Shown: piece by piece, positions 2,150 through 62,779 of the stretch | Position numbering within the stretch: the stretch's first letter is position 1 | Layout of the letters: each line of letters opens with the position of its first letter | Assembly (NCBI GenBank): GCA_014905635.1 | Contig: JABVCE010000011.1 | Coordinates: 806,001-870,000, forward strand | Direction: 5' to 3' | DNA from: Scenedesmus sp. PABB004 | Lineage: Eukaryota | Length of the DNA: 64,000 nucleotides | Made by a program: the position numbers and the translations under genes | The notes under the pieces: model-generated | Database searches by the model: none | What the model was told of the DNA's origin: nothing | The model's input: only the letters and a program-made list of their open reading frames with translations

Positions 2150-3950
2150 TCAGCGCAGCGCGCCCGCGCGCAGCACGTCGACCATGGAGTAGACCTTTTG
2201 CTCCGCGCCCTCGCGCGCCGCCTTTGCGAGGAAGAGCACCGCGTCGACGGTGCCCTCGGCGTAGATGGAGCGCCCTGTGACGTTGTGCCGGAACACAAAC
2301 TCGACGCTGCCGTCGGGGCTGAGCAGCTGGTAGGTGTGGAACGCGTGGCCGTCGAGCGACTCCTCGGGCACGCGCATGACCTCGAGCTGGCTCATGCGGT
2401 CGCGCACCTTGCGGATGTCGCTCTGCGGCGCGGCGCGCGCGGCGGGGCGGCCCCGGCGCGGCGGCGGCGGCGCGCGTGGGCAGGGCGGGCGCGGCCGCGG
2501 CGCGAGGGTGGTGCATGCGGGGCGCCGGCGCGGCCACGCGGCGTGCGGCGTGCGGCGGCCGTGCCTCCTTGACGTCGAGCCCCATCGCGGCAAAGCTCTG
2601 CACGACGGCCTTGGCGGTGCCGCTCGTGTCGGCCTTGTTGCGCTGGTGGCTCTCCACGACGCTGAGGGTGTAGCCCGCAAAGACGCCCGGGAAGTTGGTG
2701 GCCATGAGCTCCATCATCGCCTGGAACGCGACGACCTGGGAGCAGCGCCGGCGCGACGAGCGGGGGCGCGAGCGGGGGCGTCGGCCGGCGGCGCGCCAGC
2801 GCGGGCGAGCAGGGGCGTCGCGCGGCGAGCGAGAAGGGGCGCTCGCGCGCGCGCGCGCGCGGCCGCGCCTGCTTGCCCATCTGCGGCGACACGACCGCGT
2901 ACACGCCCGCCGCCTCGGCCGCCGCCGCGACCTTGGTGGGGTCGCCGCCTGCGCGCGGGCGGGCCCGGACGGGGACGGGGCGGGCGCGGGTCGGCGACGC
3001 GGCGGCGGGCGGGCGCGCGGCCGCCGGCGCGCTGCCCGGCGGCCGGCGGCCAGCCGCGCGGCCGTGAGCGCCGCGCGCCCGCCTGCGCAGGTGCCCACCT
3101 GTCGTGCCCATGACAAACGGCACCCCGTTCTCCGCGTAAAACTGCGCGTTGTCTGCGGCGGCGAGCGCGCGGCGGCAGCGTCAGCGGCGGCGGCAGGCGC
3201 CGGCCGCTGCTGCCACGGGGCGCTGCCTGCCGCTGCTGCCGGACGCTGGCGGTCGCTGCCGCGAGGCGCGGCCAGCCGCTGCTACTGCTGCCGCCGCCGG
3301 GCGCTGCCGCCGCCTGCGCCGACCCGGCGCTGCGCCGCCTGCTGCGCCGCCGCCGCAGGCGCCCCGCCCGCCCGCCCCGCCCCGCGCGGCCCGCTGCGCC
3401 GGCGCCCCCCCCCCTCCCTCCCCAAACACCCACACACACACACCGTTGACGCAGTAGGGCGTGGTGTAGTCGACGATGATGAGGTTTGGGTGGTCCTTCC
3501 GTATGCTGGCCAGCGCCGCGGCGCGGCGGTCCTTGCCCACGACCTCGACCGGCACGCCCGCGACGCCGATGTTTGACACCGCCACGCCCGCGGAGTAGCC
3601 CGTGAGCGTGAAGGGCACGAGCGTCAGCCCCGCCGCGACGACCGCCTCCGCGGCGGCGTGGCCCATCTGCGGCGCGCGCGGCGGGCGCAGCGGGGTCGGC
3701 GGCGCATGCATGCGGGCCGCGCCGCGCGTCGCGCGGGCGCACGCACCCGGCCGGTGCAGCTGTTGACCATGACGTGCGGCGCGTCCGCGCCCAGCTCCAG
3801 CCGCGGCGCGGGCTGCAGCGTGCTCGCGGGCGCGGCGGCGCAGCGGCAGCGGCGCCGCGGTCCCGCCGCTGCTGCGCCGCGCGCCGCGCCGGCGCCGGGC
3901 GGCGCCGCGCCGCCGCGGCGGCCGCAGCCCGCCGGGCGCGCCGCCTGCAT
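2150..3950 (-). CDS. dapB: 4-hydroxy-tetrahydrodipicolinate reductase (plant/plastid-type DapB), 6 exons
   Basis: Spliced peptides VMVNSCTGR|MGHAAAEAV, IIVDYT, VPFVMGTTG, VVSPQMGKQ|VVAFQAMME, VVESHQRNKADTSGTAKAV, GHAFHTY and HNVTGRSIYAEGTVDAVLFL match plant DapB. The Ala/Arg-rich N-terminus resembles a transit peptide. Confidence 0.92.
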
Positions 3951-4444
3951 GGCGCCTGGGGGCTGCGGCCCGGCCGGGGCGTGTGCTGCGGCCGGGAGGG
4001 GGGCTCGCGCGAGGGGCGTGGGCGCGTGTGCGATGAGCACCCGGGCGCGTTGCGGCGCTGGCGATGCAGCGAGCTCGTGGGCGGCGTGGGGAGGCCAAAT
4101 GAGGGCGACGAGCGACGGGGGCCGATCAAACTGCAACAGAGCGGCAGAAGAACCGGCCGTGCGTCGAATCCGCTGTCCGGCTGCTGCTCGCGCCCACCCC
4201 CGGCGCACCCCGACCTCCCCACCCGCTCCACGCCAGCCCTCCCGCGCAGCGCCGGTGCTGCGGCCGCGCCCAACCCCCACCCCTCGCCGCGCGCAGCGTG
4301 GCGGGACGCCGGCGAGCTCCCCGGCGCGCTCTCAGGTCTCTGGGGCCGCCACAGCCGGCGTGGGCGGTCTCACGCGCGGGGTGAGCGGCAACAGCAGATG
4401 CCACCTCGCACCTAGCCCGCCCGTCGCCCCGAGGCCCCGGCGCC

Positions 4445-5777: not shown

Positions 5778-5844
<67 letters not shown>

Positions 5845-8800
5845 CAGCATCAGCAGGGGCTCATGGCAGCTCCCCCCCCTCACGCCCGCCGCGTCGCCGC
5901 GCCGCGTCGCCCGCAGCTCTGCGACGGCGCGAGCGCCGAGGAGCGCGCGCGCTGGTTCCTCAAGCCCGCGCCCGAGTTTGCCTACCTCAACCAGAGCACG
6001 TGCTTCGAGATCCCCGGCGACAGCAACGCTGAGGAGTACGAGGTGAGCTGTGCGGGCGGGACGGACAGCAGCTGTTGTTAGACACGACGCCCTGCCGCGC
6101 GCGGCGGCAGCTGGGCAGCGCTGGCGGGCGGCGGCCTCACCACATCCCTGTCTCCGCCGCTGCCGCCGCGGCGCAGCGCACGGTGAGCGCCATGTCAAAG
6201 GTCGGCATCCCGGCGGAGCAGCGCGAGGCCGTGTTTGCGACCGTCGCGGCGGTGCTGCACCTCGGCAACATCAGCTTCGTGGAGGGGCCCGAGCCCGACA
6301 GCAGCAAGGCCGCGCCCGGCAGCGCGCAGGAGCACCTCAGGGCCGCGGGTGCGGGCGCGGCGGCTGCCGCTGCGCGCTGCAGCGGCGGCAGCCTCGGGTC
6401 GCTCACACGCCGCTGCCGCTGCCGCCGCCGCCGCGCCGCCGCCGCTGCGGCGCGCAGCCAAGCTGCTGGGCGTCGACCCGGCGGGCCTGGAGCACGCGCT
6501 GACCACGCGCTCGCGCGTCATGCGCGAGGGCGTCATCGTGTCGCCGCTCAACGTCCGCGCCGCGGTCGAGAACCGGTGCGCGCCGCCGCCCGCGCCCGCA
6601 CGCGCTCCTCCCCGGCCCTTCCCCCGTCTTCCTGACCCGCGCCCACGCGCCGCGCCGCGCTTTGCGTGCAGCGACTCGCTCGCCAAGGTCGTGTACGCGA
6701 AGCTCTTTGACTGGCTCGTCGCCGCGGTCAACGCGGCGATCGGGGAGGACCCGTCCGCCGCGGCGAGCGTGGGCGTGCTGGACATCTACGGCTTTGAGAG
6801 CTTTGAGTACAACGACCTCGAGCAGTTCTGCATCAACCTCGCCAACGAGAAGCTGCAGCAGCACTTCAACCAGCACGGTGCGCCGCGGCGCCGCGGGGAG
6901 GGGAGGGGAGCCCGCGGGCGGCGGCGCGGGGAGCCCCCGGGGCCTGGGCGAGCCTGGGCGCGGCGGCGCGGCGCGCACGCGGGGCGGGCGCCGCGCGCGC
7001 GACGCGGCGCGGCGGCCGCCGCCCGCGCCGCGCAGTGTTCAAGCAGGAGCAGGCAGAGTATGAGCGCGAGCAGGTGCGCCGCACGCCGCACGCCGCCGCG
7101 CGCAGCACGCCGCGCGCCGCCCGCGCGCCGCTACGCGCGTCTCTCTGCTCGCCGACGCGCCGCCGCCCGCCCGCCTGCGCCCGCGCGCCGCGTGTCGCCG
7201 CGCGTCGCGGCCGCCAGATCGACTGGAGCTACATCCAGTTTGTGGACAACCAGGACGTGCTGGACCTCATCGAGGGCCGCCTCGGCGTGCTGGACCTGCT
7301 CGACGAGCAGTGCCGCTTCCCCACCGCGACGCACAAGGCGCGCGCGCGCACGCGCGAGCGTGCGCCCCTCCGCCGCGCGCCGCGCTGGCGGCTCGCTCGC
7401 GGCGCCCGCGCGCCCAGCCCGCTGCGCCCAGCCCGCCGCGCCCAGCCCGCCGCGCCCAGCCCACCGCGCCCGCGCGCGTGCGTGTGCGCGCCGCAGGACC
7501 TCGCGGAGAAGCTCTACGGCACGCCGAGCGTGCGCGACAGCGGGCGGTTCAGCAAGCCCAAGCTGAGCCAGACGGCCTTTACCATCGCGCACTACGCTGG
7601 CCCCGTGACCTACCAGACTGAGAACTTCCTGGACAAGAACAAGGACTTTGTGGTCGCCGAGCACCAGGCGCTGCTCGAGGCGAGCGCGACGCCCTTCGTG
7701 CGCGAGCTCTTCGCCGGCGGCGAGCCGGTGCGGCGGCGGCTGCGCGCGCGCGCGGCGCGGCGCGGGGTGCCGTGCGCGCGCGCCGGGGAGGAGCCCGCGC
7801 GGCGGCGGCGCGGCGCGCCCACCGCGCGCCCGCCTGCCGCGCCGGCCGCGCCCCGCGCGCGCAGCAGGCCGAGGGCGAGGGCGGCAAGGCGTCCGCGCCG
7901 CGCGCCGCGTTCAAGTTCAACAGCGTGGGCAGCCAGTTCAAGCGCCAGCTCGGCGAGCTCATGGCGCAGCTGCACACCATGGAGCCCCACTACGTGCGCT
8001 GCGTGAAGCCCAACGGCCTCAACCGGCCGGGCCTGTTCGAGAACTCCAACGTGCTGCACCAGCTGCGCTGCGGAGGTGCGCGCGCGCGGGGAAAGCGCGC
8101 GCGCACGCGCGTGCGCGCGCCGCCGCTCCGCACCGCGGCGCACGCGCCGGCGCCCACGCGCGCCGCGCGTCGCGTCGCCAGGCGTGCTCGAGGCGGTGCG
8201 CATCAGCTGCGCCGGCTTCCCCAGCAAGCGGCCTTTCCCTGACTTTGTGGACCACTTCTGGCCGCTCGCGCCGGAGCTGTACCACACGCCAGACCTCGAC
8301 GACAGGCGCGCGCTTGCGCCCGCCGCGCGCGCGCCGCAGGGCGCCGGCGTCGCGCGCCGGGCGCGGGGCGCGGCAGCTGGCTGCGCCGGCCGCCGGCGCG
8401 GCCCCGGGGCGCGCGCGCCGACGACGCGGCCGCCGCCGCGGCGCCGTCGCCCCGCCGCGCGCGCAGGGCGATCGCGGAGGGCGTGCTGCGCGCGAGCGGG
8501 CTGGAGGGGTACCAGCTGGGCACGTCCAAGGTCTTCCTGCGCGCGGGGCAGATGGCGCTGCTGGACAAGCAGCGAACAGAGAAGCTCTCCGCCGCGGCCA
8601 CGCTGCTGCAGCGCCACGCGCGCGGCTTCCTCGCGCGCCTGCACTACCGGCAGGCCCAGGCCGCGGTCCTGCGCATGCAGGCGTTTGCGCGCGGCGCGCT
8701 CGCGCGCAAGCTCGTGCGCGGGCTGCGCGAGCAGCGCGCGGCGGTGGTCATCCAGACCGCGTGGCGGCGGCACCAGATGCGCCAGCGCTACCAGGCGGTC

Positions 8801-11800
8801 GTCCACACCATCACGCACCTGCAGGCACGCGGCTCCGCGCGCGCCGCCGCTGCGCCGTTCTCGCGGCGCGGCCGCCGCCCCGGCCCGCGCGCGCGCCCAC
8901 GCGCCGCCGCCCGCCGCCGCCCCGCCGCCGCCGCCGCCGCGCCCGCAGGCGCTCTGGCGCGGCGTCGCGGCGCGCGCCGCGTACGCCGAGGCGCGGCGCG
9001 AGCGCGGCGCGCTGGTCATCCAGTCCAACTGGCGCGGCGCGGTCGCGCGCGGCGAGTTTGCGGCGCTGCGCGGCGCGGCGACGACGCTGCAGAACGCGTT
9101 CAGGGTCAAGGCCGCCGCGGCGGAGCTGCGGCACCTCAAGAGCGAGGCGCGCGAGGCCGGCAAGCTGCTGGAGGACAAGAAGGTCCTGGAGACCAAGGTG
9201 CGGCGGCGCTGCACCTTGGGGGCCAGCGGGCAGGCCAGGCGGCGGGCCCGCCGCCGGCGCAGCCCACGAGCAGCAGCCCTGCGTGCGTCGGGGCCGCGCC
9301 ACGTGCCCACGCCCGCCCGGCGCCTGCCGCCGCGCCGCGCCGCGCCGCGCCGCAGCTCAAGGAGGCGCAGGCCACGCTGGAGCTGGTGCAGGGGCAGCGC
9401 AACGAGCTGCGGCAGGAGGTCAAGGAGCTCAAGGCGGCGCTGGCAGAGGCGGCCGCCGTGCAGCAGGTGCGCGCCGGGCAGGGGAGGGCGCGCGGCGGCG
9501 GCCGTGCGCTGGGCCGGCGAGCGCCGAGCGCGTGCGCGTGACCCGCTCATCTGCTCGCGAGGGGCCGGGGGCGGAGGAGACGGCGCCGCACAGGAGCGGC
9601 ACTGCCCGCCGCCGCCGCCGCCTCTCCCGTGCGCGCAGGCCGCCGCCGCGGACCGCGAGGCGGCGCTCGAGGCGGCGCGCGACGAGGCGGCCGCGCAGCT
9701 GCGCGCCGCGCAGGAGGGCGCCGCCGCGGCGCAGGCGCTGCTCGCCGAGGCGCAGACGGCGGCCGCGGCCGAGGCCGCGCGCGTCGCGGGCGACCGGGGC
9801 GAGCTGGACAAGCAGCTCAAGGTCGCGCAGGTGCGACCGCGGCGCCGGCACCGCCGGCCACACCGCCGCCGCCCGCCCGCCGTGCGCTTCCGTCCGTCCC
9901 TCGCCCGCCCCACGCTGCACGCCGCCGCGCCGCGCGCGCCGCGCCGCGCCGCCGCCGCCTGCCAACCCTGTTGTCCTGCGCCCTGCGCCCTGCGTCGCGC
10001 GTGCCCCGCAGGACTACATCCAGCGCCTCATGGCTGAGAAGGCCGACCTGGACAAGCGCTTCCACGGCATGAAGGACGAGCTCATCACGCGCCTGCAGAA
10101 CGCGTGCGCGCAGCGCGACGAGGCGCGCGCCCAGGTGCGCCGCGCGCGGCGGCCGGGCGGCGGCGGCGCGGGCGGCGCCGCGCGGGGCTGAGTCTGTGTG
10201 TGGGGCAGCGGCGCTGCTGCTGGTGCTGGCGCTGCTGCTGCTGCTGCTGCTGCTGCTGCCGACCCCGCCGCCGTGGCCACACGCCCCCGCCCCCCCCCCT
10301 CTGCAGGTCATGGAGTTGGACAACCGGCTGCAGAAGGCCGCCGCCGACGCGGTGAAGCAGCAGGACGAGACGCGCAAGGCGGTCGCGGCGGCGGCCGCCG
10401 CCGCGGCGAGCGCGCCGCCCGCCGCCGCGCAGCCCGCGGCGCCGCCGGCCGCGGCGGGCGCGCCGCCCGCGGCCGTCGGCCCCGACGGCGCGCCGCTCGC
10501 CAACGGCGACGGCACGGTGCTGGGCAGCATGCGCAAGCAGGCGGGCGCAATGCTGCAGCAGGCGCCGGGCTACGCGCGCATGCTGGGCGAGTCGCTGGGC
10601 ATGGCGGGCCACCCCGACGGCGCAGGGCTGGGCGGCCCGGAGCACGTCCCCGGCGGCTACGACGGCCGGCCGCCGCACCTGCAGGAGACGGAGCTGGAGC
10701 GCAAGACGCGCGAGCTGCAGGCGCGTGACCCGGCCGCGCCGCCGCACAGCCCCGCCCCGCGCGGGCGCCCCGCGCGCGCGCCGCCGCCGCTGGCGCTGAC
10801 GCGCCGCCGCGCGGCCGCCTCCGCCGCTGCCCCTCAGGCCAAGCAGGCGCAGCTGATCCAGGAGAAGCGCAAGCAGGAGGAGGAGCGGCTGCTCGCGGCG
10901 CTGGCGGCGCCGATGGGCTTCCACAAGGGCAAGCCGCTCGCGGCGCTGGTCGTCTTCCGCGCGTGCCTGCAGTGGCGCGCGTTCCAGGCCGACCGCACGA
11001 GCGTGTTCGACAGGATCATCCAGGTCATTGGCAGCCAGATCGAGCGGCAGCAGGACGACAACGCCTGCCTCGCGTACTGGCTGACCAACACGGTCACGCT
11101 GCTGCACCTGCTGCAGCGCAACATTAAGCCCGCGAGCGGCAGCAGCGGCAGCGTCAAGCGCGTCGCTGCGGCGGCGGGGCGCAGCATCATGGGCGGGCTC
11201 TTCGGCCGGCAGCCCATGGGCGGTGCGCCCGCCCGCCCGCGCCGCGCGCCGCGCCGCCGCCGCCGGCTCGCGGCCCTCGCCCCGCCACGCGCGCGCGCCC
11301 ACCTGCTGCTCGCCCGCCCACGCACTCACCAACCCGCTCGCCCCCGCCCGGCCCGGGGCCGCGCGCGCGCACGACCGCGCGCAGGCGAGGCGTCCATCCA
11401 CGGCGGCGGCGTGGGCGGGTTCCGCCTGGTGGAGGCCAAGTACCCGGCGCTGCTGTTCAAGCAGCAGCTCGACGCGTTTGTGCAGAAGATCTTCCCCATG
11501 ATGCGCGACAACGTCAAGAAGGCCATCACGCCCATGCTCGTGCGCTGCGCGCTCGCCCGCGCGCGCCGCGCGCGTTGCCGCCGCGCGCCGCGCGCGTGCC
11601 GGCGCGCCGCCGCCGCGGCGGCCGTCGGTTGGTTCGGCGGCCGCGCGCTCACGCGCGCCGCGCCGCGCCGCGCCGCGTGCGGCCGTGCAGGGCCACTGCA
11701 TCCACACGCCGCGCGGCGGCCACGGCCGCGGCGGCGCGGCGCTCACGAGCCGGCGCAACAGCGGCGGCGCGGCGCTCGCGGGCGGCGCCGGCGGCGCGGG

Positions 11801-13082
11801 CGCGGCCGCCGACGCGCAGAGCAAGGCGTGGGGCGACATCCTGGCCGTGTTTGACGAGCTGCTCGCCAAGCTGCGCGACAACCACGTCCCCAAGCCGCTC
11901 GTGCAGGCGCTGTTCCGGCAGCTCTTCAGCTTTGTCAACGTGCAGCTCTTCAACCAGCTCCTCCTGCGCCGCGAGTGCTGCAGTTTCAGCAACGGCGAGT
12001 ACGTCAAGACCGGCCTCGCGCAGGTGCCGACCGACCGCGCGCGGGCAACGAGTGGGCGCCGCGCGGCGGCGCCGCACGGCGCGCGGGCGCGGGCGCGGCA
12101 CGGTGCTGCCGCGTGGGCGCCGCGTGCGCGCGCACCGCGCTGACCGGCCGGCGCGCGCCGCCGCGGCGGCCTGCCTGCTCCCGGGTGCCAGGTCGAGAGC
12201 TGGATCATGGAGCGCGGCAACGAGTGGGTGGGCGAGAGCTGGGACGAGCTCAAGTTCATCCGCCAGGTGTGCCGCGGCGCGGCACGGCGCGGCACGGCGT
12301 GGCACGGCGCGGCGCGGCGCGCTCCCGCCCCGCCCGCGCTCGGTCGCTGCGCGGCGGCCGCTGACACACGCACATGCGCGCCGTCACGCCGCGCGGCGCG
12401 GCGGCGGGTCGCCACAGGCGGTGACGTTCCTGGTGATCGGCAACAAGCCCAAGAAGAGCCTCGACGACATCACGCGCGACCTCTGCCCCGTGCTGTCCAT
12501 CCAGCAGCTGTACCGCATCTCCACGATGTACTGGGACGACAAGTACAACACAGAGACCGTGTCGAGCGAGGCGCGCGACGGGGCCGCCCGCTGCTGCGCG
12601 GCCGCGGCACGCGCCGGGGCCGCTGCGACCGCTGCGACGCGGCGCCGGCGGCGGCGAGGGGGCTGCGCCTGACTTGTCGCGCCGCGTGCCGCCGCCGCGG
12701 TCCGCGCAGGTGCTGGGTCGCATGAAGCAGGCGATGGTGGAGCACAGCAGCAGCGCGAGCCACAGCTTCCTGCTGGACGACGACTCCACGCTGCCCTTTG
12801 CGGCCAACGACATACTCGCGCAGATGGACGACAAGGTGCGCGGGCGAGGGGGAGCGTCGGGCGTTGGAGGCCCTGGGCGGCGCGCGAGCGCGCCGCGCGG
12901 GGTGCGGGCGCCGGCGCGCCCGCCCGCGCCCTCACGCGCGCCGCCGCGCTCGCCCGTCCGGCTGCGGCGCTGCGCCACAGGACCTGTACGTCGCGCTGCC
13001 CGTGCCGGACGCGCTCAAGGGCGGCGACGGCGGCGGCAGCTGGGCGTTCCTGGAGAAGGAGCTGCGGTTCAGCCAGATGTGA
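4445..13082 (+). CDS. Class XI myosin (SH3-like N-terminus, motor, IQ repeats, coiled coil, DIL cargo domain), about 25 exons
   Basis: Motor motifs [22 protein letters not shown] (P-loop), [27 protein letters not shown] and [12 protein letters not shown] motifs such as IQTAWRR and IQSNWRG. The DIL tail [53 protein letters not shown] and SFLLDDD is diagnostic of myosin XI. Confidence 0.96.
5781..5840 (+). repeat. (GCA)n microsatellite in a myosin intron, preceded by imperfect 18-bp repeats
   Basis: About 20 perfect GCA units lie inside the intron that starts at 5613, after several GGCAGCAGGGCTGGCG(A/G)C copies. Confidence 0.9.
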
Positions 13083-13310
13083 GCCGCCGCCGCTGCCCGC
13101 TGAGCGGCAGGCAGCCGCGGCGGGACGGGGCGCTGGTGCGGCGCGGCCGCGCTGGGCGGCCGCCGGCGGTCGCGGCCGGGGCGTGGGCGGCAGCCGCGGG
13201 CGGCCCAGCTGCGCGGCGACGCTGGGGCATCGGTGGCAGGGGCAGGGCTCTCAGGGCGGCGGCCGGCTGCGCGCGGCGCCCCGCTTCATTGATCTTGGGG
13301 GCGGGGCGGA

Positions 13311-13902: not shown

Positions 13903-13965
<63 letters not shown>

Positions 13966-15420: not shown

Positions 15421-17496
15421 ATGGGGAAGAACGACTTCATGACGCCCAAGGCGGTGCGCGCCGCGCGAAGCAGCGGCGGGCGGCGCGTGGCAGCGGCGCC
15501 GCCGCGGCAGGCGCAGCCCCCGGCGCGGCGGCCGGCGGTCCGCCTCTCCCTCTGCGGACGCTGCGCGGCGCTCCAGCCGCGCCGCCGCCGCTGCGGCCGC
15601 CGCGGCCGCGCCGAGCGGCGGCCGAGCGCCGACCGCCCGCTCCGCCGCCGCCACCCCGCCGCCGCCGCGGCCGCGGCCGCGTCGCAGATCGCCAACCGCA
15701 TCAAGGCCAAGGGCCTCAACAAGCTGCGCTGGTACTGCCAGCTCTGCCAGAAGAGCTGCCGCGACGAGAACGGCTTCAAGTGCCACCAGATGAGCGAGGG
15801 GCACCGCCGCCAGATGGAGGTCTTCGGCGCCAACCCCGGCCGCGTCGTCGACGGCTTCAGCGAGGAGTTTGAGTCGAGCTTCATGGACCACCTCCGCCGC
15901 GCGTGAGCCGCCGCACCCCGCGCCGCGCCAGCCCCGCGCCGCGCGCGCCGCCGCACGCCGCGCGCGAGCCAGCCAGCCGCGGCCGCCGCGCGCCGCCCTC
16001 CCGCAACCCGCCGCCGCCGCGCCCGCCCTGCCCTCCCGCCGGCGCCGCGCGCGCGCAGGCACCCGTCGAGCCGCGTTGCGGCGCAGAACGTGTACAATGA
16101 GTTCATCGCCGACCGGCACCACGTGCACATGAACTCGACGCGCTGGCTCACGCTCACAGACTTTGTGAAGCACCTCGGCCGCACCGGGCAGTGCAAGGTG
16201 GAGGAGACGGAGAAGGGCTGGTTCATCACGCTCATAAAGGTGTGCCGCGCGTGCAGTGCATGACGCACACCACATGGGCCTGTTGAGGGGCTGCGTACGA
16301 GACGCAGCGCGTGCACGTGTGTGGGGGCGCGTGACCGGGCGCGTGCCGAGGCGGTGCCCGCCCGCGTGCGCCGCGCGCCGCGCCGCAGGTCGACCACGCC
16401 AAGGCGCTGTCGGACGCAGAGCGGCTCAAGCGCGAGCGCCAGGAGGAGGAGGAGGAGGAGCGCACGCAGCGACTGCTGCTGGCGCAGGCGCGTGCCCGGC
16501 TGCGCCGCGCCGGCGCCGCGCCGGCGCCGCGCTGCGCTGCGACGCGGCGCGACGCGACGACCGCCCGCCCCGCTGGGCGCATTCGCGCCCGCAGGTCGCG
16601 CGCGCGCGCAAGACCGCGCGCACGGATGACGGCGACGAGGAGCTGCCGCGCGAGCTGCAGCGCGGCGACGACGACGCGCCGATCAAGCTCAGCCTCGCCG
16701 CCGGCGGCGGCGCCGGCGCCGCAGCGGCGGTGGCGGACGGCAGGGGCGCCGCCGCGGCGGGGGGGCGGCGGCCGGCCGCGGCGCCGCCGCTGTTTGGCGA
16801 CGACGACGGTGCGCCGGCGCGGGCGCCGCGCGGCGCGGCCCATGGCGCGCGCCGGCCTGCGCGGTGCGGCGTGCAGCGCGCGTCCGCGCCTCCACCGCCG
16901 CGCCCGCCGCGCCCGCCGCGCCACCGCCGCCGCCGCGCAGAGCCGGGACCATCGGGCCAGCAGGTGGCGCAGCAGGTGGGCGGGCGCAAGCTGAGCAAAG
17001 TGGAAGAGATCATGCAGCGCGACCTGCAGGAAAAGCAGCGCCGCGCGGCAGCCGCGGCCGCGGCCGCCAGCACGAGCGGCCGCGGCGGCGACGGCGGCGG
17101 CGGCGGCGGCGGCGGCGCGCGGTCGCGGCTCGACCACTGGCTGTCGCCCGGGCTGGTGGTCAAGGTGGTGAGCAAGGCGCTGAAGGGCCAGGGCTATTAC
17201 AAGGCCAAGGGCGTGGTCGAGCGCCTGGTCGACACGTACGTCGGCGAGGTCGCGATGCTCGACAGCGGCGACGTGCTGCGCGTGGACCAGGCGGAGCTCG
17301 AGACGGTGCTGCCCGCGCCCGCGGCGCGGTGCGCGTCGTCAACGGGCCCCACGCCGGCGCGGCGGGCGTGCTGCGCGGCATCGACACCGCCCGCTTCCAG
17401 GCAGAGGTCGCGCTGCGCGGCGGGCCGCACGACGGCCTCGCCGTGTGGCTGGACTACGAGGACGTCTGCAAGGTCGCGAGCGGCGGCGGCGCGTGA
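15421..17496 (+). CDS. KIN17: DNA/RNA-binding protein KIN17 (apparent 1-nt frameshift near 17320)
   Basis: MGKNDFMTPKA|IANRIKAKGLNKLRWYCQLCQKSCRDENGFKCHQMSEGHRRQM, VYNEFIADRHHVHMNSTRWLTLTDFVKHLGR, and the C-terminal KOW region DQAELETVLP...YEDVCKV*. Confidence 0.93.
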
Positions 17497-17735: not shown

Positions 17736-20304
<2,569 letters not shown>

Positions 20305-40046: not shown

Positions 40047-43000
40047 TCAGCCGGCCACGCTCGGCAGCTGCAGGCGCTGCCGCTGGCGCTGCCGCTCGGC
40101 CGCCGCGCCCGCACCTGCCACGGGCGCCAGCTCGAGCTCGTCGCCCGCGGCGACCTTGGCGCCCTGCCGGCTGCGCCGCGCGACGCCGGTGCCCGGGGCG
40201 TCGCCCGCGGCGTCGCTGCCGCGCTGCTGCTGCAGCGAGGCCAGGTTGTCGGCGTCGGCGCCGAAGAGCTGCCGCCCCGCGTTGACGTTGCGCTGCGTGG
40301 CGCGGCGCTGCACGCGCTCGCGCACCTCCCACTCCTGGTGCGCGCGGGCGGGGGGGGGCGAGGGGGGCGCGAGAGGGGGGGGGGGGCTGAGCGCGCGCGC
40401 GACGCGGCGCCGCCGGGCGCGGCGCGTGCGCGCGTGCGCGCGCATGCGCAGCGCGCGCCTGCAGCAGCGCGACCAGGTCTGGCGACAGCCAGCGCTTGAA
40501 CAGCAGCACCGCCAGGTCCGGCAGCAGCGCCATCGCGGGCGCGCACAGCAGCGCGCTCAGCCAAAACACGGGGCTGCGGGGGCGCGCGCGCGCGCGGCGG
40601 TGCAGGCTCGGGCGGCGCGCGCGCGGCGCTGCGAGCGGGCGTCGCGGCGCGCCGCGGCGCGGGCGCGCACTTTGAGAAGAGCCACTGCCCGACGCCGCTC
40701 ATGTCGCTGACGCCGCTGATGGGCGTGGCCGGCCAGAGGATGGAGATGACCCATATGAATGGGAAGAGCACGGCGAGGCTGAGCCAGTAGACGAGGTGCG
40801 TGATCCACGTCCACGCGTGCGTGCGCAGGCAGAGCTTGAACGCGACCGTCGCGGTCAGCGCGACAAACACGGCCGTGCCCGCGCACGCGAGGTCGGACGA
40901 CAGGCCGTGGCGGTCGGGCGTCGCGAGCGCGTACCAGGGCAGGAAGAAGACGGGCAGGCTGTGCCACGTGCCCGCGAGCATGTACACCGCAAACCGCCTG
41001 CGGCAGCACACACGCGCCCGTCGGCAGGGGCGCGCAGGAGGCAGGCGCAGGAGGCGGGCGCGGCGGGCGCGGCGGCGGCGCGCGCGCGCGCGCGCACGCA
41101 CCCGAAGAAGCCGCGCCGCGTCGCGGTGCGCGAGACGGCGTAGGTCTCGGGGTTGGCGAGCACGCTGGGCACGGCCATGTCCTGCTCCAGCACCGCGTAC
41201 GCGACGATGGGGCAGGCGGTGAAGATCATGTTGAACGTGGAGATCATCAGCGTCGTGAAGATCGGCACCGCGGAGAAGCCTGCGCCGCGCGGCGCGGCGG
41301 GGGCTCGTCCCGCGGGGGCCGATCGCACTGCCGCAGCGCGCGCGCACGCACAAACACAAAAGCAGGCCACCCGCCGCGCGCAGCGCGCGCAGCGCGCGCA
41401 GCGCGCGCAGCACGCGGGGTTTGTGGCCGCGCTTTTGCTGCACGCACCGGCCAGGAACTGGAGGTAGACGTAGACGAGGACGTAGGCCCAGTTCTTGTAA
41501 AAGGAGTAGAGCACGACCTCGCGGTTGCGCAGGTAGCTCCACCGCCCGTGCAGCAGCAGCAGGCGCGACAGGTACCTTGTGTGTGGGGTGTGTGTGTGTG
41601 TGTGTGGAGGGGGGGGGGGGGGGAAGTGCCGGCGTCGTGCGCACACGAGCGCGGGCCGGGCGCGGGCCGGGCACGGCGGCGCGGCGAGGGGCGGCCGCGC
41701 ACCTGAACTGCGCGAACGAAAAGTCCGACGACAGCACCGCGGCGCGGCCCTCGCGCCCGCTGATGCCCACGCCTGCGCGCGGCGCACGCGCGCGCACGGC
41801 GGGTCGGGCGCCGCGCCGCGCCGCGCTCGGGCCCGCCCGCGGCGGCGCGGACGCGGCGGCGCCGGCGCACGCGTGTGGGGGCTCACCGATGTGCGCGGCG
41901 CGGATCATGCCCACGTCGTTGGCGCCGTCGCCGATGCCCAGCGTGATGGCGCCGGCCTTGCGCTTGACCATGGTCGTGATCTGAGTCAGCCGGCAGCAGC
42001 GCCGCGGTGAGCGAACAGCCGGGCCCCCGCGCGCGGGGGCTGGACGCCGGGCGACGGCCCCGGGCTGCGCCGCGCAGGGCGGCGCCGCGCACGGCGGCGC
42101 ACACACGCGCGCACACACACCTCCGCCTTCTGCATCGGCGACACGCGGCAGCACACCACCGCGCGGCACTCGCGACACAGCGCCATGAGGCCGTCCTGCA
42201 GGTCGGGCTCGAGCGCGACGTGCAGCGCGCCACCCTCAATGACGATGCCGACTGCGGTGTGCCCCGGCGCGACGTGCAGGCCCTCGTTGGCGGCCCGCAC
42301 CTCCGCCAGCTTGGCCGCCAGCACCTGCGCGCGGCACGGCGCGGCGCGGTGAGCGAGTGCAGCGCCACGACGGGGCCGCCGACCACGCACCGCCCCCTGC
42401 GCGCCGCCGCCGCACCGCCTGGCGCGCCTCCACGCCCTTGGCGTCGCCAAAGTCGGCCTCCCGGAACTCCACGAGCGCCATGTCGTCGGTGAAGAGGCGG
42501 CAGCTGTAGGCGATGGAGATGGCGGTCTCCACCTTGTCCCCGGTCAGCACCCAGACCTTGATGCCCGCCGCGGCCAGCGCCTGCAGGCACTCCGGCACGC
42601 CGTCCTGCCCCGGCGCGCGTGCGGGGCACACGCGCGAGTGAGCGCGCGCGCGGCTGCGGCGCCGGCGGAGCCGCCGGTGCGCACGCGTGCGCGGCGCGGC
42701 CTCCACCCACCTGCAGCTTGTCCTCCACCGCGGTCGCGCCCACGAGGTGCAGGCCGTGCTCGATGCGCTCCTGCTCCGCCGCCATGCGCGCCTCGCGGTC
42801 GACCATGGCCACCTGGGCGGCGCGCGCGCGGGCAGGTGCGGCGCGGACGGCGGTGGGCCGGCGCGCGCGCCGGGGCCGGCGTGCCACGCCGCGCCGCGCC
42901 GCGCCGCGCGCACCTGCGCGGCGGAGTACGCCGCCTCCCAGGCCTCGTACTCGGCGCGGCTGAGCTCGCGCTGCCCGACCAGCAGCGTGCGGTAGCCGGC

Positions 43001-46000
43001 GCACGCCATCTCGTCCTGCGGCGAGCGTCGGCGCCGAGGCGTCGCCCGGCGGCAGCCTCGCGCCCGGCGGCGGCCCCGAGCCGCAGCGCGGCGGCGCGCG
43101 CGCCCTCCCCGCCACGGGCGGCGCACCAGGTGCTCCTTCACCGCCTCCACGCCGGGCTCGCCGGGCGCGAGGCGCGCGAGGATCATGGAGTCGGCGCCCT
43201 TGCACATCAGCAGCAGGCGGTCGTCGGGCGTGCGCACGATGATCGACATGCGCTTGCGGTCCGAGTTGAACTCCAGCGTCGCGAGCACGTCAAACGTGTG
43301 CACCGCGCCGTCGATGCACACCGTCACCGCCTCGGTCGTGCGCGCGGTGAGCACGTGCCGCAGGTACGCCGCGCCCTGCACCAGCGCCTCCTCGTCGGGC
43401 GACGACGCCTGGCTCGGCGGCGCGTCGCGGCGCGGCGGCGGTGCGCGGCGGCGGCGGAGCGCGTCGGCTGGCAGGCGGGCGGGCGCCGGGCGGGCGGGGC
43501 CGGGCGCTGCAGCACCCCGCCGCTCTGCCGCCGCCGCCGCGCTGCGCCGCGCGCCTGGTAGAGCAGCGAGCCGTCGTCGTTGACGGCCGGCACGACCGTG
43601 TTGCAGACGGCGAGATTGAGCAGGAAGTCGGCGACCCCGGGGTCCATCAGCCGCCCGCCGCCCGCCGCGCCCTTGCCCGCCTCGGCCTGCGCGTCGGCGG
43701 CCGCGCGGCGCGCGGTCAGCGAGCCGCGCGCACTCGCGCGGCGCGGCCCCGCCCCCCCCTGGCGCGGCGCGCGGCGCGCGGCGCGCGCCTTGGCGCCGGT
43801 GGCCATGCCCAGGGCCTTGTGCAGGTCCTTGTCAAACGCGATCGTGTGCGGCGTGGCGAGCTCCGCCTCGCCCGCGTCGGGCGGCGCGCCGAGCAGCTCG
43901 CGCCGCGTGTCGGCGCTGGACGTGAGGTTGCGGCCGTAGAGCCGGCCGCTCACGCTGGCCCAGACAAAGCCCATCACATTCTGCGTGAGCGTGCCGGTCT
44001 TGTCGCTCAGCACGTACTGCACCTGCGCGGCGGCAGGGACGGCGCAGGGCGTGCGCGCGTGGGCGCGTGAGCGCGTGAGCGCGCGCGTGCACGCGCGCGC
44101 GCAGGTGTGCGCGGCGCAGAGAGGCGCCGCCCGGCCGCCGCGGGCCTGCGCGGCGGCGGCAGGGCGCGCGCGCGCGCGCCTGGCCGAGCTCCTCGTTGAG
44201 CGTCGTCGTGCGCGCGACGAAGGGCGTGTCGGTCTCGGCGTGGTACATCGCGCGGTCGGGGTTGAGCAGCAGCGCGCACTGGAAGACCTTGACGACCTCG
44301 AGGCTCACGTAGAGGCTGATGGGGATCATGTTGCTCAGCAGGATGAGGAAGCGCAGGAACTGACAGGGGGGCGTTATCAAGGGTTGAGCCACGGCGCGGT
44401 GGTGGTGGTGCGGGGGCGCAGGACAGGGGCGGCAGGCGGCGGGCGGCCGGCGGGGGCGCGTGGGCGGCAGAGGCAGCGGCCGAGGCGTGGCGCAGCCCGG
44501 GCGCCGAGGCCGCGGCGCGGCGCTCCCGCGGGGCCGAGCGCGCCGGCGGCGGCGCACCGTGATGAAGAACGAGGCCACGCCCGGCGGCAGCTCGGGGTAG
44601 CGGTACGTGCTGCGCAGGTACCAGAGCCGGCGCGGCGCGTTGGTCGACGCCCACCACTGGTCCGCGCCGGCGAGCGCCGCGCTGAAGGCGATGAGCGTGG
44701 AGAACATCACAAACACCAGCACGTTCATGGAGCGCTCGAGCTGCGTCACCTGCGGCCGCGCGGCGCGCGGCGCAGGCGCGTCAGCACGCGCGCGCCGACG
44801 CTGCGCGCGGCTTGGCGGCGGGCGCGCGGACCCCGCCGCCCGCAGCGAGCCGCGCCGCGCCGCGCCGCGCCTTGCGCGGCGCCTTGGTCATGTTTTGCAC
44901 GATCTTGCTGTCGCGGCCGACGTTGAGCGCGACGCCGATGGCCCACTCCGTCTTGCGCAGCACGCTGCCGCGCAGGAGCAGGTTGTTTATGTCCAGCGGC
45001 TGCTTGCTGCCGCCGGTCTCGACGTAGCCGTCAAACGCATACAGCCTGCGGCGCGGCGGCGGCGCCGGCGGCGGCTGCGTGGGTGCGCGCCCGCGGCGCC
45101 CGGGGCTGCCCGTGACGCCGCCCCCGCCGCCGCCGTGGCGGCCGCCGCGGGGCGGACAGCGCTGCGGGTCCCACACCGCGGGTTGGGCGCCTCGTAGCCA
45201 AAGACGCAGTGCTCGGCGAGGCCGCGGAACTGCTCGACCGTGGTGGCCTTGGCGAAGCCGCCCCAGGCGTACTTGATCTTCAGGTTGGTCTCGCCGTCCA
45301 GGTTGGCCGTCTCCACGTAGCACAGGTCGTCGGGGTCGGGGCTGGACAGCAGGAGCAGGTCCGCCGGCACTTCCTCGTCGACGCGGACCTGCGCGGCGCG
45401 TGCACGCCTGAGCCGAAGAGCGCAGCCGCAGAGCCCCCCGCCTCGGCCGCCGCGCTCGCCCCGCGGTCCCGCGCGGCGGGAGGCAGCGCGCCTTGATGAG
45501 GTCCCCCGCGACCACGTCCTTCCACGCGACCTCCGCCTCGCCCGACGCCGCGCTGAGCAGGAGCACGGTGCGGTTGTTGACGCCGCTGTCGTTGCGGTGG
45601 CGGTGCACGTCGTCGTAGCCCTCCTTGATCGCGTTGACCGCGAGCACAAAGACCAGCGGCGCGACGGTCGTGAACCAGGAGGTGGGGCTGAGCCCGGGGA
45701 TGAGCTGCAGGATGGCCATGAGCAGGAAGTAGAGGTTGGCGACGCGCAGGAACTGCTCAAACAGGTTGACCGGCAGGAACGTGAGCAGCGTGTACTTGGC
45801 GGTCGAGACCTCGTTCGTCGCGACGTCGCCGACGAGGTGCACGCCAAAGGCCTTGGCTAGGTGGTGCAGTGGGCCGCGCGCGACCGCGGGCCGCGCGAGG
45901 TGCGCGCGCAGCGTGCGCGCCGGCGGCGCGTCGCCCGCCGCGAGCGGCGGCGGCGCTGGCGGCGCCGGCGACGCCGCGCCGCGCACGCTGCCGTTGGCCG

Positions 46001-46091
46001 CGGCGCCGCCGTCGCTAGAGGCTCCCTGCTTCTCGCTGCCGGCGCGCTGCGCCACGGCGCACGGCGCTCCAGCTCCTGCCGCGCCCGCCAT
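40047..46091 (-). CDS. P4-type ATPase (ALA-type phospholipid flippase), about 19 exons
   Basis: [125 protein letters not shown] possible extra 5' exon lies near 46240-46304. Confidence 0.95.
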
Positions 46092-46792
46092 GGCTCGCCG
46101 CTGCGCCTGCGTGCGGTGGTGCGGCGGCGGCGGCATCAGCGCCCGCACGCCGCCGGGCCGGGGGGGGGGCGGCCGGCCACAGGGGCGCGCCGCGGCCCGG
46201 CGCGGGCGCGGCGCGGCGCCGCCGCTGCTCTCGCCCGGTGCGCGGCAGCACAGGGGGTACGTGGCGGCGCTGGCGGTCGAGATTGCTGGATCCAGCTCAG
46301 CCATGAGCGTGTGGGCGCGGCCGCGAGTCCGGGCGCGCGCGATCTGGGGCGCCCGGCGCTGCTGACTGCCCGCGCATCGGGCGCGCCCCGCATCCTCCGC
46401 GCACCTGCGGCCGCGCGGCGCTGCCGGCCTCAGCTCAGCACCGAGCAGCTTCCAGCACGCACGGAAGCGCCGGGCGGGGCATCCTGCGGCGGGCTCGTCC
46501 CCTGGCGAGCAGCGCGGCGAGCGCTGCTTGCGGCGGAGCTGCCGGCCAGCGGCGGCGAGCGGGGAGGGACGGGGTAACGCGCAGGAGCGGCGCTGCTTTG
46601 CGCTCGCCTGAGCTGACGCGGCGGCGCCGCCGCGCGGGTTGGCGCGCGGCGGGGCTCGGGGCGTGGCGCAGACGCGGGTCGCGGCGCGGCCGGTGCCTGC
46701 CTGTTTCCGCATTCCCCTTGTTCGCCTTTGATGGTACACCGCCCCAGCGCCCGCCGGGCAACCGGAATTGGCCCCACGAGGTCCGCCGCGCG

Positions 46793-49435: not shown

Positions 49436-49530
<95 letters not shown>

Positions 49531-60477: not shown

Positions 60478-60971
60478 GATGCAGCAGGGGGATTGCACGG
60501 CATGCAGCAGGATGCTCCCTTTTTTCCTCCGCTTGCGCTGGGATTCGACCATTCACGCAGGGCGGCGCGCCGCCAGTGCGCGCGCGCCGCCCACCGAGCT
60601 GCACTGCGTTCGGACGCACGCGCGCGCGCGCGCGCGCGCGCCCTCTGCTCGCGCGGCCGCGGCCTGTGCAGGCTGCTGCACCGCATTCTGTCGCGCAACC
60701 CAACTTCCTGTGCGAGTGTGGCTCGCGCGTTCGTCTGTGATCTGTGCGAGTCAACAGCGACTGACTGAACAGTCATGACTGAGACCCGGTGCACCGCGTC
60801 ACGTGACGCGGCGGACGGACGCCGCGGCTGCAACCCGTGGGCTCCTGCATGTGTGTGCCCCAGACCCCCTCCCACCGGCAGCTCTGCCGACGCAGCCTCT
60901 GAGCTCAGCGCCGCAGCGCTGCACCGTCCCGCCGCCACGCTAGCCCACCGCCGCGCAGCCGAGCACACCCC

Positions 60972-62779
60972 ATGCGGGGACGGCTGGCATGGGTTGGTCG
61001 TGCCGTGGCGCGCGCGGGCTGGAGCGGCAGCAGCGGCAGCAGCAGCAGCAGATGCTGCTCGAGCGCCAGCGCCGCCGCGGTGGAGCGCGACATCTACACC
61101 GCGCGGGCGGGCGAGTTGCCGCCTGAGTTTGTAGGGGACGTGCTGGCGGCGCTTGTTGGCCCCAAGGCGCGCCGCGGCGTGGTGGCGCGGCGCGCGACGC
61201 GCGCCGGAGCGCTGCTGCTGGCGGCGCGGCCCGCAGGTGCGCGGGCGGCGCGCCGGCGGGGGTCGGCGGTCACCCGGGGCGTGCGGCCCTAACCGGGGCG
61301 CCGCCCGGCGCGCCGCAGCGATCGTCGAGGGCGCGCCCGAGGAGCAGCCGAACGCGGCGGCGCTCGTCCCGGCGCTGCAGGCCGCGTCGGCCGCGCCGGG
61401 CGTCGCGGCGGCGCTGGGCGCCCTGTACGACGGCACCGCCGAGTCGGCGCAGCGCCCGCCCGACCTGCGCAACATGGCGGCGGCGGGGCAGCAGGGCGGC
61501 GGCGGCGGCTGCGGGCACGCGCACCACCAGGGCGGCGGCGACTGCGGCGGCGGCCACGGCCACGGCGAGCACCACGGCCACGGCGGCGGCGGCGGCGGCG
61601 GCGCGGGGCTGCCGGCCGAGCGCGCGGCGGCGCTGGTCAAGTTCAACGCCTTTGGCGACGACTACGAGGACCTGCCCGCCGCAGCGGCGCGCGGCGTGGC
61701 GCTGCCGCACAGCCACGTGGGCCTCTGGCCGCAGGTCCGCGCGCGGCCGGGGCGGGCGGCGCGCGCGCGGCGCGCGACGCGCCGCCCACGCGCCGCCCCC
61801 GCGCGCGCGCTCGCTGTCCACCCCAGTTCTCGCTGTTCAACCACGCCTGCCTGCCCAACGCGGTGCACTACGTCGTGGGGCACTGCATGGTCGTGCGGTC
61901 GGTCGACGACGTCCCCGCGGGCGAGGAGCTGCTGGTCAGCTACCTGGGGCGCGAGGAGTACTCGCCCGCGCCCGTGCGGCAGGCGCTGCTCGCGGAGCGG
62001 TTCGGCTTTGGCTGCGCGTGCAGCCGCTGCGCGCTCGAGGCCGACGCGCCGCGCGCGCTGACGGCGGCGATCCGGTCCGCGTACGACGCGGTCACCCAGG
62101 CGCGACGTGACGTGTGGGGCTGGGCCGGGCGGAGGGGAGGGCAGGACAGGGACGCGTGGGATGGGCGCAGCGCGCGGCGGCCGTGCTGCCAGCGCCGGCG
62201 GCGGCGGCGGCGCGGCCGATGCGTGCCGCGCGCGACGCCGCCCCCCCCTCTCGCGCCCGCCGCGCGCAGGAGCTCAAGCCGGCCTTCATGGAGGCGGTGG
62301 CGGCGCAGGACGTCGTCGGGCTCGCGGCGACGCAGACGGCGCTGGCCGCGCGCGAGGCCGCGCTGTCGGCCGCGCTCGCCGCGCACCTGCCGCGCCTGAG
62401 CGACGGCGCGGCCCTGGTGCTGCAGGCGGGCGCGTACGAGCTGCACGAGCTGCTGCTCTTCTGCGAGCAGCTCGCGCCGGCGCAGCACGGCGGCGGTGGC
62501 GGCGGGGAGCGGTCGCACGCGCTGCTCGGCCGGCTGGGGCGGTGCCTCGCGATCGTCGCGGCGGCGAGCAAGGGCGCGGAGCTCCACGTCTTCCTCGCCG
62601 CGCGCCTGGCGGCGCACGCGGCCGCGCTGCGCGGCCCCGACTCGCCCGCCGCGGCGGCCGCGGCGGGGCTGCTCGACGGCGCGCTGCGCGCGCGCTACGG
62701 CGGCGCGATGGACGACCCCGACCTCGCGCGCGCGCTGCTCGAGGCGAGTGAGGCGGCGGCGGAGGAGTTTCTGATGTGA
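60972..62779 (+). CDS. Second SET-domain (SMYD-like) protein with His/Gly-rich insertion
   Basis: RRGVVARRATRAGALLL, NAF, VGLWPQ|FSLFNHACLPNA, GEELLVSYLG and post-SET FGFGCACSRC. The start codon is tentative. Confidence 0.85.

Follow-up and report, generated by a model that had tools for sequence, protein, structure and literature searches.

GC-AG introns and their strict donor context in a 64-kb window of the GC-rich green alga Scenedesmus sp. PABB004

Introduction

Can a fifth to a quarter of the introns in a stretch of nuclear DNA begin with GC instead of GT, and what would allow it? The question is raised by 64 kb of DNA from the green alga Scenedesmus sp. PABB004 (contig JABVCE010000011.1; hereafter the window, 64,000 nucleotides (nt) in all). 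An earlier note on this DNA had listed 22 GC donors, put GC-AG introns at a fifth to a quarter of all introns, and ascribed them to GC pressure that had reached the second intron base (+2) wherever pairing on the exon side compensates. Here, about a quarter of the introns in the window were confirmed, by protein homology and reading frame, to be GC-AG introns. They are very probably ordinary U2-type introns in which GC stands for GT at the donor under strong genome-wide pressure toward G and C.

The genome concerned (GCA_014905635.1) is listed in a table of PMC12571836 with a size of 39.8 Mb, 7,092 genes and 78.5% GC, and is among the most GC-rich nuclear genomes on record. Judging by its exons, the window is nuclear DNA of this strain: exons of a P-type ATPase gene, a myosin gene and an eIF2B gene are 100% identical to the deposited proteins ATP8B4 (P0001) and XI-F (P0126), both of Scenedesmus sp. 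PABB004, and P0241, respectively. The G+C content along the window is 74-81%, on par with the genome mean, and the N count is zero. A codon-position track (GC at the third minus GC at the second position) resolved both strands into numerous short stretches of coding sequence, with ~100-200 nt between one and the next. When 93 coding segments outside three large genes were compared with Pfam, matches were obtained for DapB, a bZIP-like gene, KIN17, HemC, a protein kinase, a truncated globin, Spc25, a TRAPP subunit, a SET-domain gene and an MFS transporter fragment. An Rfam scan of the window at gathering thresholds gave zero matches, and no small nuclear RNA (snRNA) was found within it.

Results

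Frequency of GC-AG Introns

Introns of the myosin XI, P4-ATPase and eIF2B genes were located with a purpose-written protein-to-genome dynamic programme (BLOSUM62, affine gaps, three intron phases and exact scoring of split codons) that permits all 16 donor dinucleotides at near-equal cost (non-GT penalty, +0.5) and makes an AG acceptor obligatory. The sets contained 7 orthologs, 9 orthologs and 10 cluster representatives, respectively, each with the deposited model in addition. A junction was accepted if at least 5 of 8 columns scored positively, free of gaps, on both sides and in at least two orthologs, the deposited proteins being uncounted. The strict tally for these three resolved genes came to 40 junction calls (28 GT, 11 GC and 1 CG). 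The sole CG call (9204-9361) is spurious, a duplicate of the GT intron 9198-9355 shifted by 6 nt, and GC is, on these alignments, the only non-GT donor that passes when all 16 dinucleotides are allowed.

The filter removed 155 further calls (14 GT, 33 GC and 108 other), mainly in low-complexity termini and variable loops. Included among them were eight consistently called introns with weaker flanks (GC at 8306 and 8825; GT at 7728, 9467, 11223, 42913, 42415 and 41101). With these eight counted, the GC-AG share is 13 of 47, or 28% (95% confidence interval, 16-43%), and it is also 28% (11 of 39) without them; at a rate of 2%, 13 or more GC introns among 47 would be expected with a probability of 6e-12. 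By gene, myosin XI has 24 introns between 4649 and 12980, five of which are GC; the P4-ATPase has 17 ortholog-supported introns, again with five GC; and eIF2B has six, with three GC (Table 1). Ortholog alignment thus reproduced the counts given previously for myosin (5 GC of ~24) and eIF2B (3 of 6).

Three more genes were assessed against protein profiles. The E. coli DapB protein was too distant to place introns by alignment (score 124, every junction weak), and coordinates on TIGR02130 (NCBIfam, plant-type DapB) were used instead. The DapB exons match positions 103-128, 129-183 (a 57-residue exon, which extends the match to 185) and 187-269 (from residue 2, so that the exon begins at 186). 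HemC follows TIGR00212 over positions 79-200, a split codon, and 203-242 from residue 2, and alignment of E. coli HemC with all 16 donors allowed led to the choice of the junction at 18636. For the kinase exons flanking 28394-28528 and 28664-28759, the Pfam coordinates are continuous within one residue. The verified set obtained in this way comprises 54 introns (36 GT and 18 GC). GC is over-represented in it because DapB, HemC and the kinase were checked mainly at the claimed sites.

All 22 listed coordinates correspond to the first base of an intron, with AG/GCGCG at 19 and AG/GCACG at 3 (2564, 8825 and 24629), where the slash marks the exon-intron boundary. The list itself stood in large part: 18 of its donors were verified by homology or profile, one (38545) came through a deposited model only, and three (16488, 62100 and 43788) came through composition or the gene model described below, unverified by homology. 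Both 16488 and 62100 are required to join coding segments that lie in different frames. The 43788 segment is in frame, with a codon log-odds of -0.6 bits/codon and 8% A+T, compared with +1.0 to +1.4 and 24-29% in its flanks. Deposited gene models already splice at 13 of the listed donors (4 in P0126, 6 in P0001 and 3 in P0241). For the 43554 intron, an alternative CC..AG placement 4 nt upstream yields an identical product.

A single-strand gene model, built from codon log-odds, an acceptor matrix and one donor matrix each for GT and GC, learned from the verified introns, 52 of 54 of which it recovers; as this is the training set, the recovery is not independent. The model over-predicts on antisense and intergenic DNA and was used within the 11 Pfam-named genes only. 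There it proposed 94 introns, 26 of them GC, with GC proposed in 10 of the 11 genes. Four GC calls are doubtful: orthologs support the GT donor 42415 in place of 42427, the donor scores at 38672 and 46819 are negative, and the call at 27243 (AG/GCCCG) has no further support. Setting these aside leaves 22 of 94, or ~23%, which together with 13 of 47 in the resolved genes bears out the earlier estimate of a fifth to a quarter.

The window might nevertheless be unrepresentative, with a far lower GC-AG share (<10%) genome-wide, given that it covers only 64 kb of a 39.8-Mb genome and that the verified counts come from six genes. All six genes examined by homology or profile did, however, yield verified GC donors, and GC donors were modelled in 10 of the 11 Pfam-named genes (26 of 94 introns, or 22 after removal of the doubtful calls); 13 of 47 is incompatible with 2%, and the GC content of the window is that of the genome. 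We regard an unrepresentative window as quite improbable.

Alternative Readings of the GC Junctions

The GC donors could have been mis-called, either because a nearby GT is really used or because the in-frame segments are coding insertions. Among the 18 verified GC introns, seven are multiples of 3 in length, stops are rare in 78% GC DNA, and two segments, 10721-10837 and the 43788 region, are read through in deposited models, all of which this alternative would accommodate. Against it, the lengths of the other 11 introns are not multiples of 3, so that the frame shifts, and a stop interrupts the read-through frame of the in-frame intron 28664-28759. For the 18 verified introns, all GT dinucleotides up to 75 nt from the donor were considered, provided that they keep the frame in combination with an AG no more than 75 nt from the acceptor. 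The nearest such alternative shifts the donor by 9-75 nt, at a cost of 3-25 codons, in 16 introns and involves a double shift in the other two, whereas the GC junctions are gap-free with exact profile continuity.

The composition of the in-frame segments also argues against a coding role. Their GC content is flat across the three codon positions, their codon log-odds are negative (-0.55 to -1.06 bits, compared with +0.7 to +2.5 in the flanks), their A+T content is 8-15% (22-41% in the flanks), and orthologs lack them. The residues that the introns would encode are absent from transcript-like orthologs, namely P0141, P0153 and P0171 (contigs of 5.7-6.4 kb) and P0160 (from a transcriptome project). 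Removal of the GC introns from the mRNA is indicated indirectly, by gap-free ortholog alignments, transcript-derived ones included, by exact profile continuity and by the frame changes. Mis-calling is, in our judgment, hardly credible.

In-frame introns can be silently read through by gene finders because stop codons are rare. The GC intron 10721-10837 (+) is taken as coding in the deposited myosin model P0126, and the probable GC intron 43687-43788 (-), in a loop of the ATPase, is likewise read through in the deposited model. The same fate is seen for a GT intron of the globin gene, 37869-37973 (-), which is read through in P0001 and spliced in P0047, the model of a relative.

Donor Context and Intron Phase

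At the 18 verified GC donors, A occupies -2 and G occupies -1 in every case, followed at +3 by G (15) or A (3), and by C at +4 and G at +5 without exception. The 36 GT donors have G at -1 in 34, A at -2 in 18, G at +3 in all 36, C at +4 in 28 and G at +5 in 35. Exonic AG therefore precedes 18/18 GC donors and 17/36 GT donors (Fisher p = 5e-5), RCG (R being A or G) at +3 to +5 follows 18/18 and 27/36 (p = 0.02), and G opens the next exon in 17/18 and 23/36 (p = 0.02). Thus, the strict AG/GCRCG donor with its invariable exonic AG was found at 22 of 22 listed and 18 of 18 verified sites, and the companion claim that GT donors accept other exon ends was also upheld. Two GT donors lack G at -1: 11540 (+), ctc/GTGCGCT, called by 7/7 orthologs, and 40670 (-), aaa/GTGCGCG, called by 8/9 (2 well aligned).

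Within the three resolved genes, the 23 donors with the full context (AG/G.RCG) comprise 13 GC and 10 GT, and the other donors comprise 0 GC and 24 GT (p = 8e-6). The interiors of the 54 verified introns contain A, C, G and T at 6.1, 46.1, 41.0 and 6.8%, respectively, so that their G+C content (87%) exceeds that of the exons and C/(C+T) is 0.87. The share of C at +2 in full-context donors, 13/23 (57%), is lower than this 87% (p = 3e-4).

The GC donors are also restricted in phase. Phases 0, 1 and 2 are represented by 16, 0 and 2 GC donors and by 21, 9 and 6 GT donors (p = 0.02 for phase 1). The -2 base is A in just one of nine phase-1 donors; phase-1 introns cannot supply A there because -2 then falls on the third base of a codon, where G or C is nearly always found. 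In other respects the two classes are alike, with median lengths of 135.5 nt (GC) and 138.5 nt (GT; p = 0.66) and a CAG acceptor in 18/18 and 35/36, respectively. A branch-point motif was sought in the 54 introns and none was recognisable, CTRAY (Y being C or T) occurring in 5 of 54.

The heptamer AGGCRCG is common in such DNA and is therefore no proof on its own, so each site was tested separately. On both strands of the window it occurs 76 times, compared with 121 +/- 10 in dinucleotide shuffles, and is thus depleted; AGGTGCG, with 40 occurrences against 20.8 +/- 5.4, is enriched. The three resolved genes contain 21 sense copies of AGGCRCG, comprising 13 verified donors, the probable donor at 43788, 1 intronic copy and 6 exonic copies. 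Avoidance of cryptic donors was rejected as the reason for the depletion, since these genes contain as many non-donor copies on the sense strand as copies on the antisense strand (8 each); the depletion is probably compositional.

Counterparts of the ATPase Introns in Relatives

Metagenome contigs were scanned with the first ATPase exon, which gave 26 loci, and six of these were aligned (L015, L017, L002, L016, L001 and L014). In L015 (50% GC), the positions of 44179 and 43554 read acag/GTTTGT and ccag/GTGAGG, with well-aligned flanks, and that of 44870 reads taag/GTATGC, with weaker flanks. L017 (56% GC) has aaag/GTGAGC at the 44870 position, with well-aligned flanks. These alignments suggest that three of the five ATPase GC introns (44870, 44179 and 43554) are old introns with AG/GT in lower-GC relatives, orthology being presumed; the comparison with such relatives had been proposed as a check in the earlier note, and its outcome is as that note anticipated. 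At 45491, neither L015 nor L017 has a counterpart in the same codon, their intron lying five codons downstream. L016 (33% GC), L001 and L014 provided nothing beyond L015 and L017.

The offset at 45491 is a point for another explanation, in which the GC introns were acquired recently as a class apart, namely introner-like mobile elements equipped with a GC donor of their own; introner-driven intron gain is known in some GC-rich algae. On the other side, three of the five ATPase GC introns match GT introns of the relatives in both position and phase, and GC and GT introns are alike in length and acceptor. An all-against-all BLASTN comparison of the 54 introns gave 1059 low-complexity matches, GT and GC alike, with no GC-specific family among the first 30 matches listed. 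A recently gained class is consequently very improbable.

The relative at L002:9500-14774 (73% GC) carries the same ATPase, with 77% identity in exon 1, and reads through most of the intron positions of the window. From its alignment, this relative is intron-poor despite a similar GC content; its junctions are weak only and uninformative on GC donors.

Other Features of the Window

The individual GC-AG introns are collected in Table 1. On the minus strand at 42415-42427, a perfect AG/GCGCGC lies 12 nt upstream of, and in frame with, the GT donor 42415, which orthologs support. This site, at 42427, could be a tandem alternative donor and is the one that the gene model prefers.

Table 1. GC-AG introns and candidate GC-AG introns of the window. 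A slash marks an exon-intron boundary (exon in lower case) or adjoining profile positions.
Status and gene	Donor	Phase	Length (nt)	Position	Strand	Evidence
GC-AG intron, DapB	gag/GCACGG	0	142	2423..2564	-	TIGR02130 185/186 continuous; length not divisible by 3
GC-AG intron, DapB	cag/GCGCGG	0	133	2736..2868	-	TIGR02130 128/129 continuous
GC-AG intron, myosin XI		0	159	7338..7496	+	Well-aligned flanks in 5/7 orthologs; P0126; intron-like composition
GC-AG intron, myosin XI		2	161	8306..8466	+	Called by 6/7 orthologs (filter passed in 1) and P0126
GC-AG intron, myosin XI	cag/GCACGC	0	124	8825..8948	+	Called by 7/7 orthologs (filter passed in 1) and P0126
GC-AG intron, myosin XI		0	117, in frame	10721..10837	+	Well-aligned flanks in 5/7 orthologs; intron-like composition; P0126 reads through
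GC-AG intron, myosin XI		0	139	12571..12709	+	Well-aligned flanks in 6/7 orthologs; P0126
Candidate GC-AG intron, KIN17 linker			107	16488..16594	+	Gene model and frame change between coding segments only
GC-AG intron, HemC		2	156	18481..18636	-	E. coli HemC alignment; TIGR00212 200/201/202 continuous
GC-AG intron, eIF2B	aag/GCACGC	0	136	24494..24629	-	Well-aligned flanks in 9/10 representatives; P0241
GC-AG intron, eIF2B		0	105	24759..24863	-	Well-aligned flanks in 6/10 representatives; P0241
GC-AG intron, eIF2B		0	207	24939..25145	-	Well-aligned flanks in 10/10 representatives; P0241
GC-AG intron, protein kinase		0	135	28394..28528	+	Pfam kinase profile coordinates continuous
GC-AG intron, protein kinase		0	96	28664..28759	+	Pfam PK_Tyr_Ser-Thr ~103/104 continuous; stop in read-through frame
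GC-AG intron, truncated-globin gene		2	125	38421..38545	-	P0001; flanks conserved in relative's model P0047, with +/-1 codon ambiguity
GC-AG intron, P4-ATPase		0	124	40335..40458	-	Well-aligned flanks in 2/9 orthologs, called by 4; P0001
GC-AG intron, P4-ATPase		0	146	43409..43554	-	Well-aligned flanks in 7/9 orthologs; AG/GT in L015
Probable GC-AG intron, P4-ATPase variable loop			102, in frame (or 108, to 43681)	43687..43788	-	Composition, gene model and one weak ortholog call (P0047)
GC-AG intron, P4-ATPase		0	157	44023..44179	-	Well-aligned flanks in 9/9 orthologs; P0001; AG/GT in L015
GC-AG intron, P4-ATPase		0	121	44750..44870	-	Well-aligned flanks in 7/9 orthologs; P0001; AG/GT in L015 and L017
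GC-AG intron, P4-ATPase		0	103	45389..45491	-	Well-aligned flanks in 8/9 orthologs; P0001
Candidate GC-AG intron after SET domain			170	62100..62269	+	Gene model and coding periodicity only

The deposited protein P0001 (1839 residues) contains Spc25, P4-ATPase and truncated-globin Pfam domains and maps across three neighbouring genes at 37653-48010 (-); from this arrangement it looks like a fused gene model. The relative's model P0047 also joins the ATPase to the globin. At 25952-26120 (-), an upstream eIF2B exon with a GT intron (26075-25952) was called with 4 of 10 representatives (well-aligned flanks in 2). This exon is absent from P0241, whose start lies at 25905.

A tandem array with a period of 327 nt and no Pfam match occupies ~52600-56320. 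On the plus strand, the gene model predicts eleven near-identical exons of 183 nt separated by GT-AG introns of 144 nt (tcg/GTGAGCG ... CCGCGCAG/cc); a minus-strand reading is the weaker predicted alternative.

Discussion

Mechanism of GC Donor Use

The GC donors occupy a context that is the local GT consensus, AG/GTGCG, with one letter changed (T to C). U12-type introns are recognised by a /RTATCCTT donor and a TCCTTAAC-like branch site. Such an identity was rejected here, since all 18 donors are GCGCG or GCACG and none has ATCC. For comparison, Chlamydomonas is entered without U12 spliceosomal RNAs and without U12 introns in Table 2 of PMC2846911.

As ordinary U2-type donors, the GC sites are most likely explained in the following manner. 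C would replace T at +2 without loss of splicing only if the remaining recognised positions of the donor were optimal, that is, A at -2, G at -1, G at +1, R at +3, C at +4 and G at +5. The C-A mismatch with U1 at +2 would then be tolerated, pairing at -2, -1, +1, +3 and +5 would compensate, and what pairing is left, first with U1 and subsequently with U5 and U6, is assumed to suffice. GC-biased substitution would have turned more than half of the full-context donors to GC, and donors without the full context would have remained GT. The direction of the change from T to C would follow from the same bias, whose cause may be GC-biased mutation or gene conversion.

A different possibility is that the spliceosome itself has changed, in the U1 5' end, the U6 ACAGAGA box, loop I of U5 or U1C, such that GC and GTGCG-GCGCG are recognised like GT and compensation by context is secondary. 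The local GTGCG consensus, with G at +3 in 36/36 and C at +4 in 28/36, does depart from GTAAGT. Full acceptance of C, however, predicts GC in any context and at ~87%, and the observed values are 0/24 in weak-context donors and 57% in full-context donors, a pattern typical of a mismatch that is tolerated. The absence of GC from weak-context donors and the strictness of the context speak against any snRNA or U1C change as the main cause. GTG-type donors are similar in Chlamydomonas, where GC-AG introns amount to only 2.1%, which also counts against a changed spliceosome. The same possibility was raised by Irimia and Roy for the GTGCGTG donors of Ostreococcus, although passages of the same paper place GTGCG-type donors in other green algae too (PMC2483917). 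As an explanation of the GC donors, a changed spliceosome is unlikely.

A further thought, also rather unlikely, is that the splicing machinery has co-evolved with the 78.5% GC genome, with GCGCG/GTGCG made cognate by a change in the 5' end of U1, in the U6 ACAGAGA box or in U1C. If this were true, the genome would be a natural titration of 5' splice-site recognition, in which the GT/GC ratio of 10:13 at full-context donors, set against 13%:87% for T:C at intron sites free of constraint, would measure the weakness of selection at +2 relative to GC-biased substitution.

The reading that we prefer, ordinary U2-type introns with GC for GT under pressure toward G and C, has several points standing against it. 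The sample is a single 64-kb window. We infer splicing from protein homology, profile continuity and reading frame, and four of the 22 sites (38545, 16488, 62100 and 43788) are not confirmed by an ortholog or a profile. In a decoy control, in which one dinucleotide was added to a GT-only alignment, GC gained most (eIF2B, +123; ATPase, +203), but CG (+87 and +152), GG (+81 and +118) and CC (+65 and +119) gained too. The latter gains come from decoys that lie one or two bases away from a true junction and imitate it; the control is weak and does not set GC cleanly apart, and therefore the tally of well-flanked junctions with all 16 dinucleotides was used in its place. AGGCRCG is necessary but not sufficient for a GC donor, six exonic copies (4554, 8991, 9147, 10123, 42791 and 42427) being unused as donors according to orthologs.

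Two further points concern the +2 position and the direction of change. Ten of the 23 full-context donors remain GT, leaving fewer C than the neutral 87%; the +2 position is therefore relaxed yet not neutral, with T still partly favoured. The orthology of L015 and L017 is presumed from 60-81% identity, and the change from T to C is read from these two loci only. The pairing argument, moreover, presumes a canonical U1 5' end for this alga. The proposal that GC pressure reached +2 wherever exon-side pairing compensates is accordingly sustained in part: the context is strict and relatives have GT, but ten donors with the full context still have T.

What is new in this window is a clean rule, in which GC occurs only in AG/GCRCG and never in phase 1, together with evidence that in-frame introns are read through in public annotation. 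The rule is tied to the phase of the reading frame and offers an unusually clean view of the donor positions that must be intact for C to be used at +2. Gene finders restricted to GT, or penalising GC, would mis-model about one intron in four here.

Comparison with Known Systems

The phenomenon is known, as is its explanation, and the window is a new instance in an intron-dense, extremely GC-rich green alga, not a new mechanism. In animals and plants, U2-type GC-AG introns make up ~1% and show an enhanced donor consensus that extends to the first base of the next exon; such introns were reportedly described by Burset in 2000 and by Thanaraj and Clark in 2001. The introns of the window belong to the same class, in that the +2 mismatch is offset by consensus at -2, -1 and +3 to +5 and G is enriched at the start of the next exon. 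They differ in a frequency 10-25 times higher and in a complete consensus that is the local GTGCG, not GTAAGT. The baseline of about 1% assumed by the earlier note is fair: an ordinary share of 0.3-2% is quoted in bioRxiv 10.1101/2024.10.30.620910, and Table 2 of PMC2846911 gives 532 GC-AG against 25,053 GT-AG introns (2.1%) among expressed sequence tag-confirmed introns of Chlamydomonas reinhardtii. That alga is also a member of the Chlorophyceae with a GC-rich genome, and differs in that its GC-AG share is only 2.1%.

No report of GC-AG usage in Scenedesmus or other Sphaeropleales was found in the literature (supplements not opened), and the terms 'splice', 'intron' and 'GC-AG' are absent from PMC12571836 (supplements not opened). 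Ostreococcus lucimarinus, another GC-rich green alga, shares the atypical GTGCG consensus of GT donors (GTGCGTG; Irimia and Roy 2008, PMC2483917), a paper in whose text the term 'GC-AG' does not appear. According to its passages on branch sites, O. lucimarinus has a strong ACTGAC branch box, whereas CTRAY was seen in 5 of 54 introns here.

The closest parallels lie outside the green algae. For the haptophyte Emiliania huxleyi, passages of Feldmesser et al. (2014; PMC4028052) give 56% GC-AG among 241 hand-curated junctions, nine of them confirmed by reverse transcription-PCR, and attribute this share to a 65% GC genome. Both cases are GC-rich algae with a large share of GC donors, a conserved AG acceptor, the same proposed cause and junctions missed by ab initio models. 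The share is 56-60% at 65% GC in the haptophyte and ~25% at 78.5% GC in this chlorophycean alga; being higher at the lower GC content, it therefore does not simply follow GC content. The AG/GCRCG context and the phase bias shown here are absent from the E. huxleyi passages compared. In the pelagophytes Aureococcus anophagefferens and Pelagomonas calceolata, GC-AG introns make up 14-17%, which sections of bioRxiv 10.1101/2024.10.30.620910 attribute to high genome GC, with 0.32% given for the lower-GC Aureoumbra lagunensis. Their GC-AG fraction is similar to that reported here, but they are stramenopiles with 0.1-0.9 introns per gene, in contrast to an intron-dense alga with 24 introns across 8.6 kb of its myosin gene. 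An intron-dense green alga thus joins the haptophytes and pelagophytes in the link between GC content and GC-AG usage.

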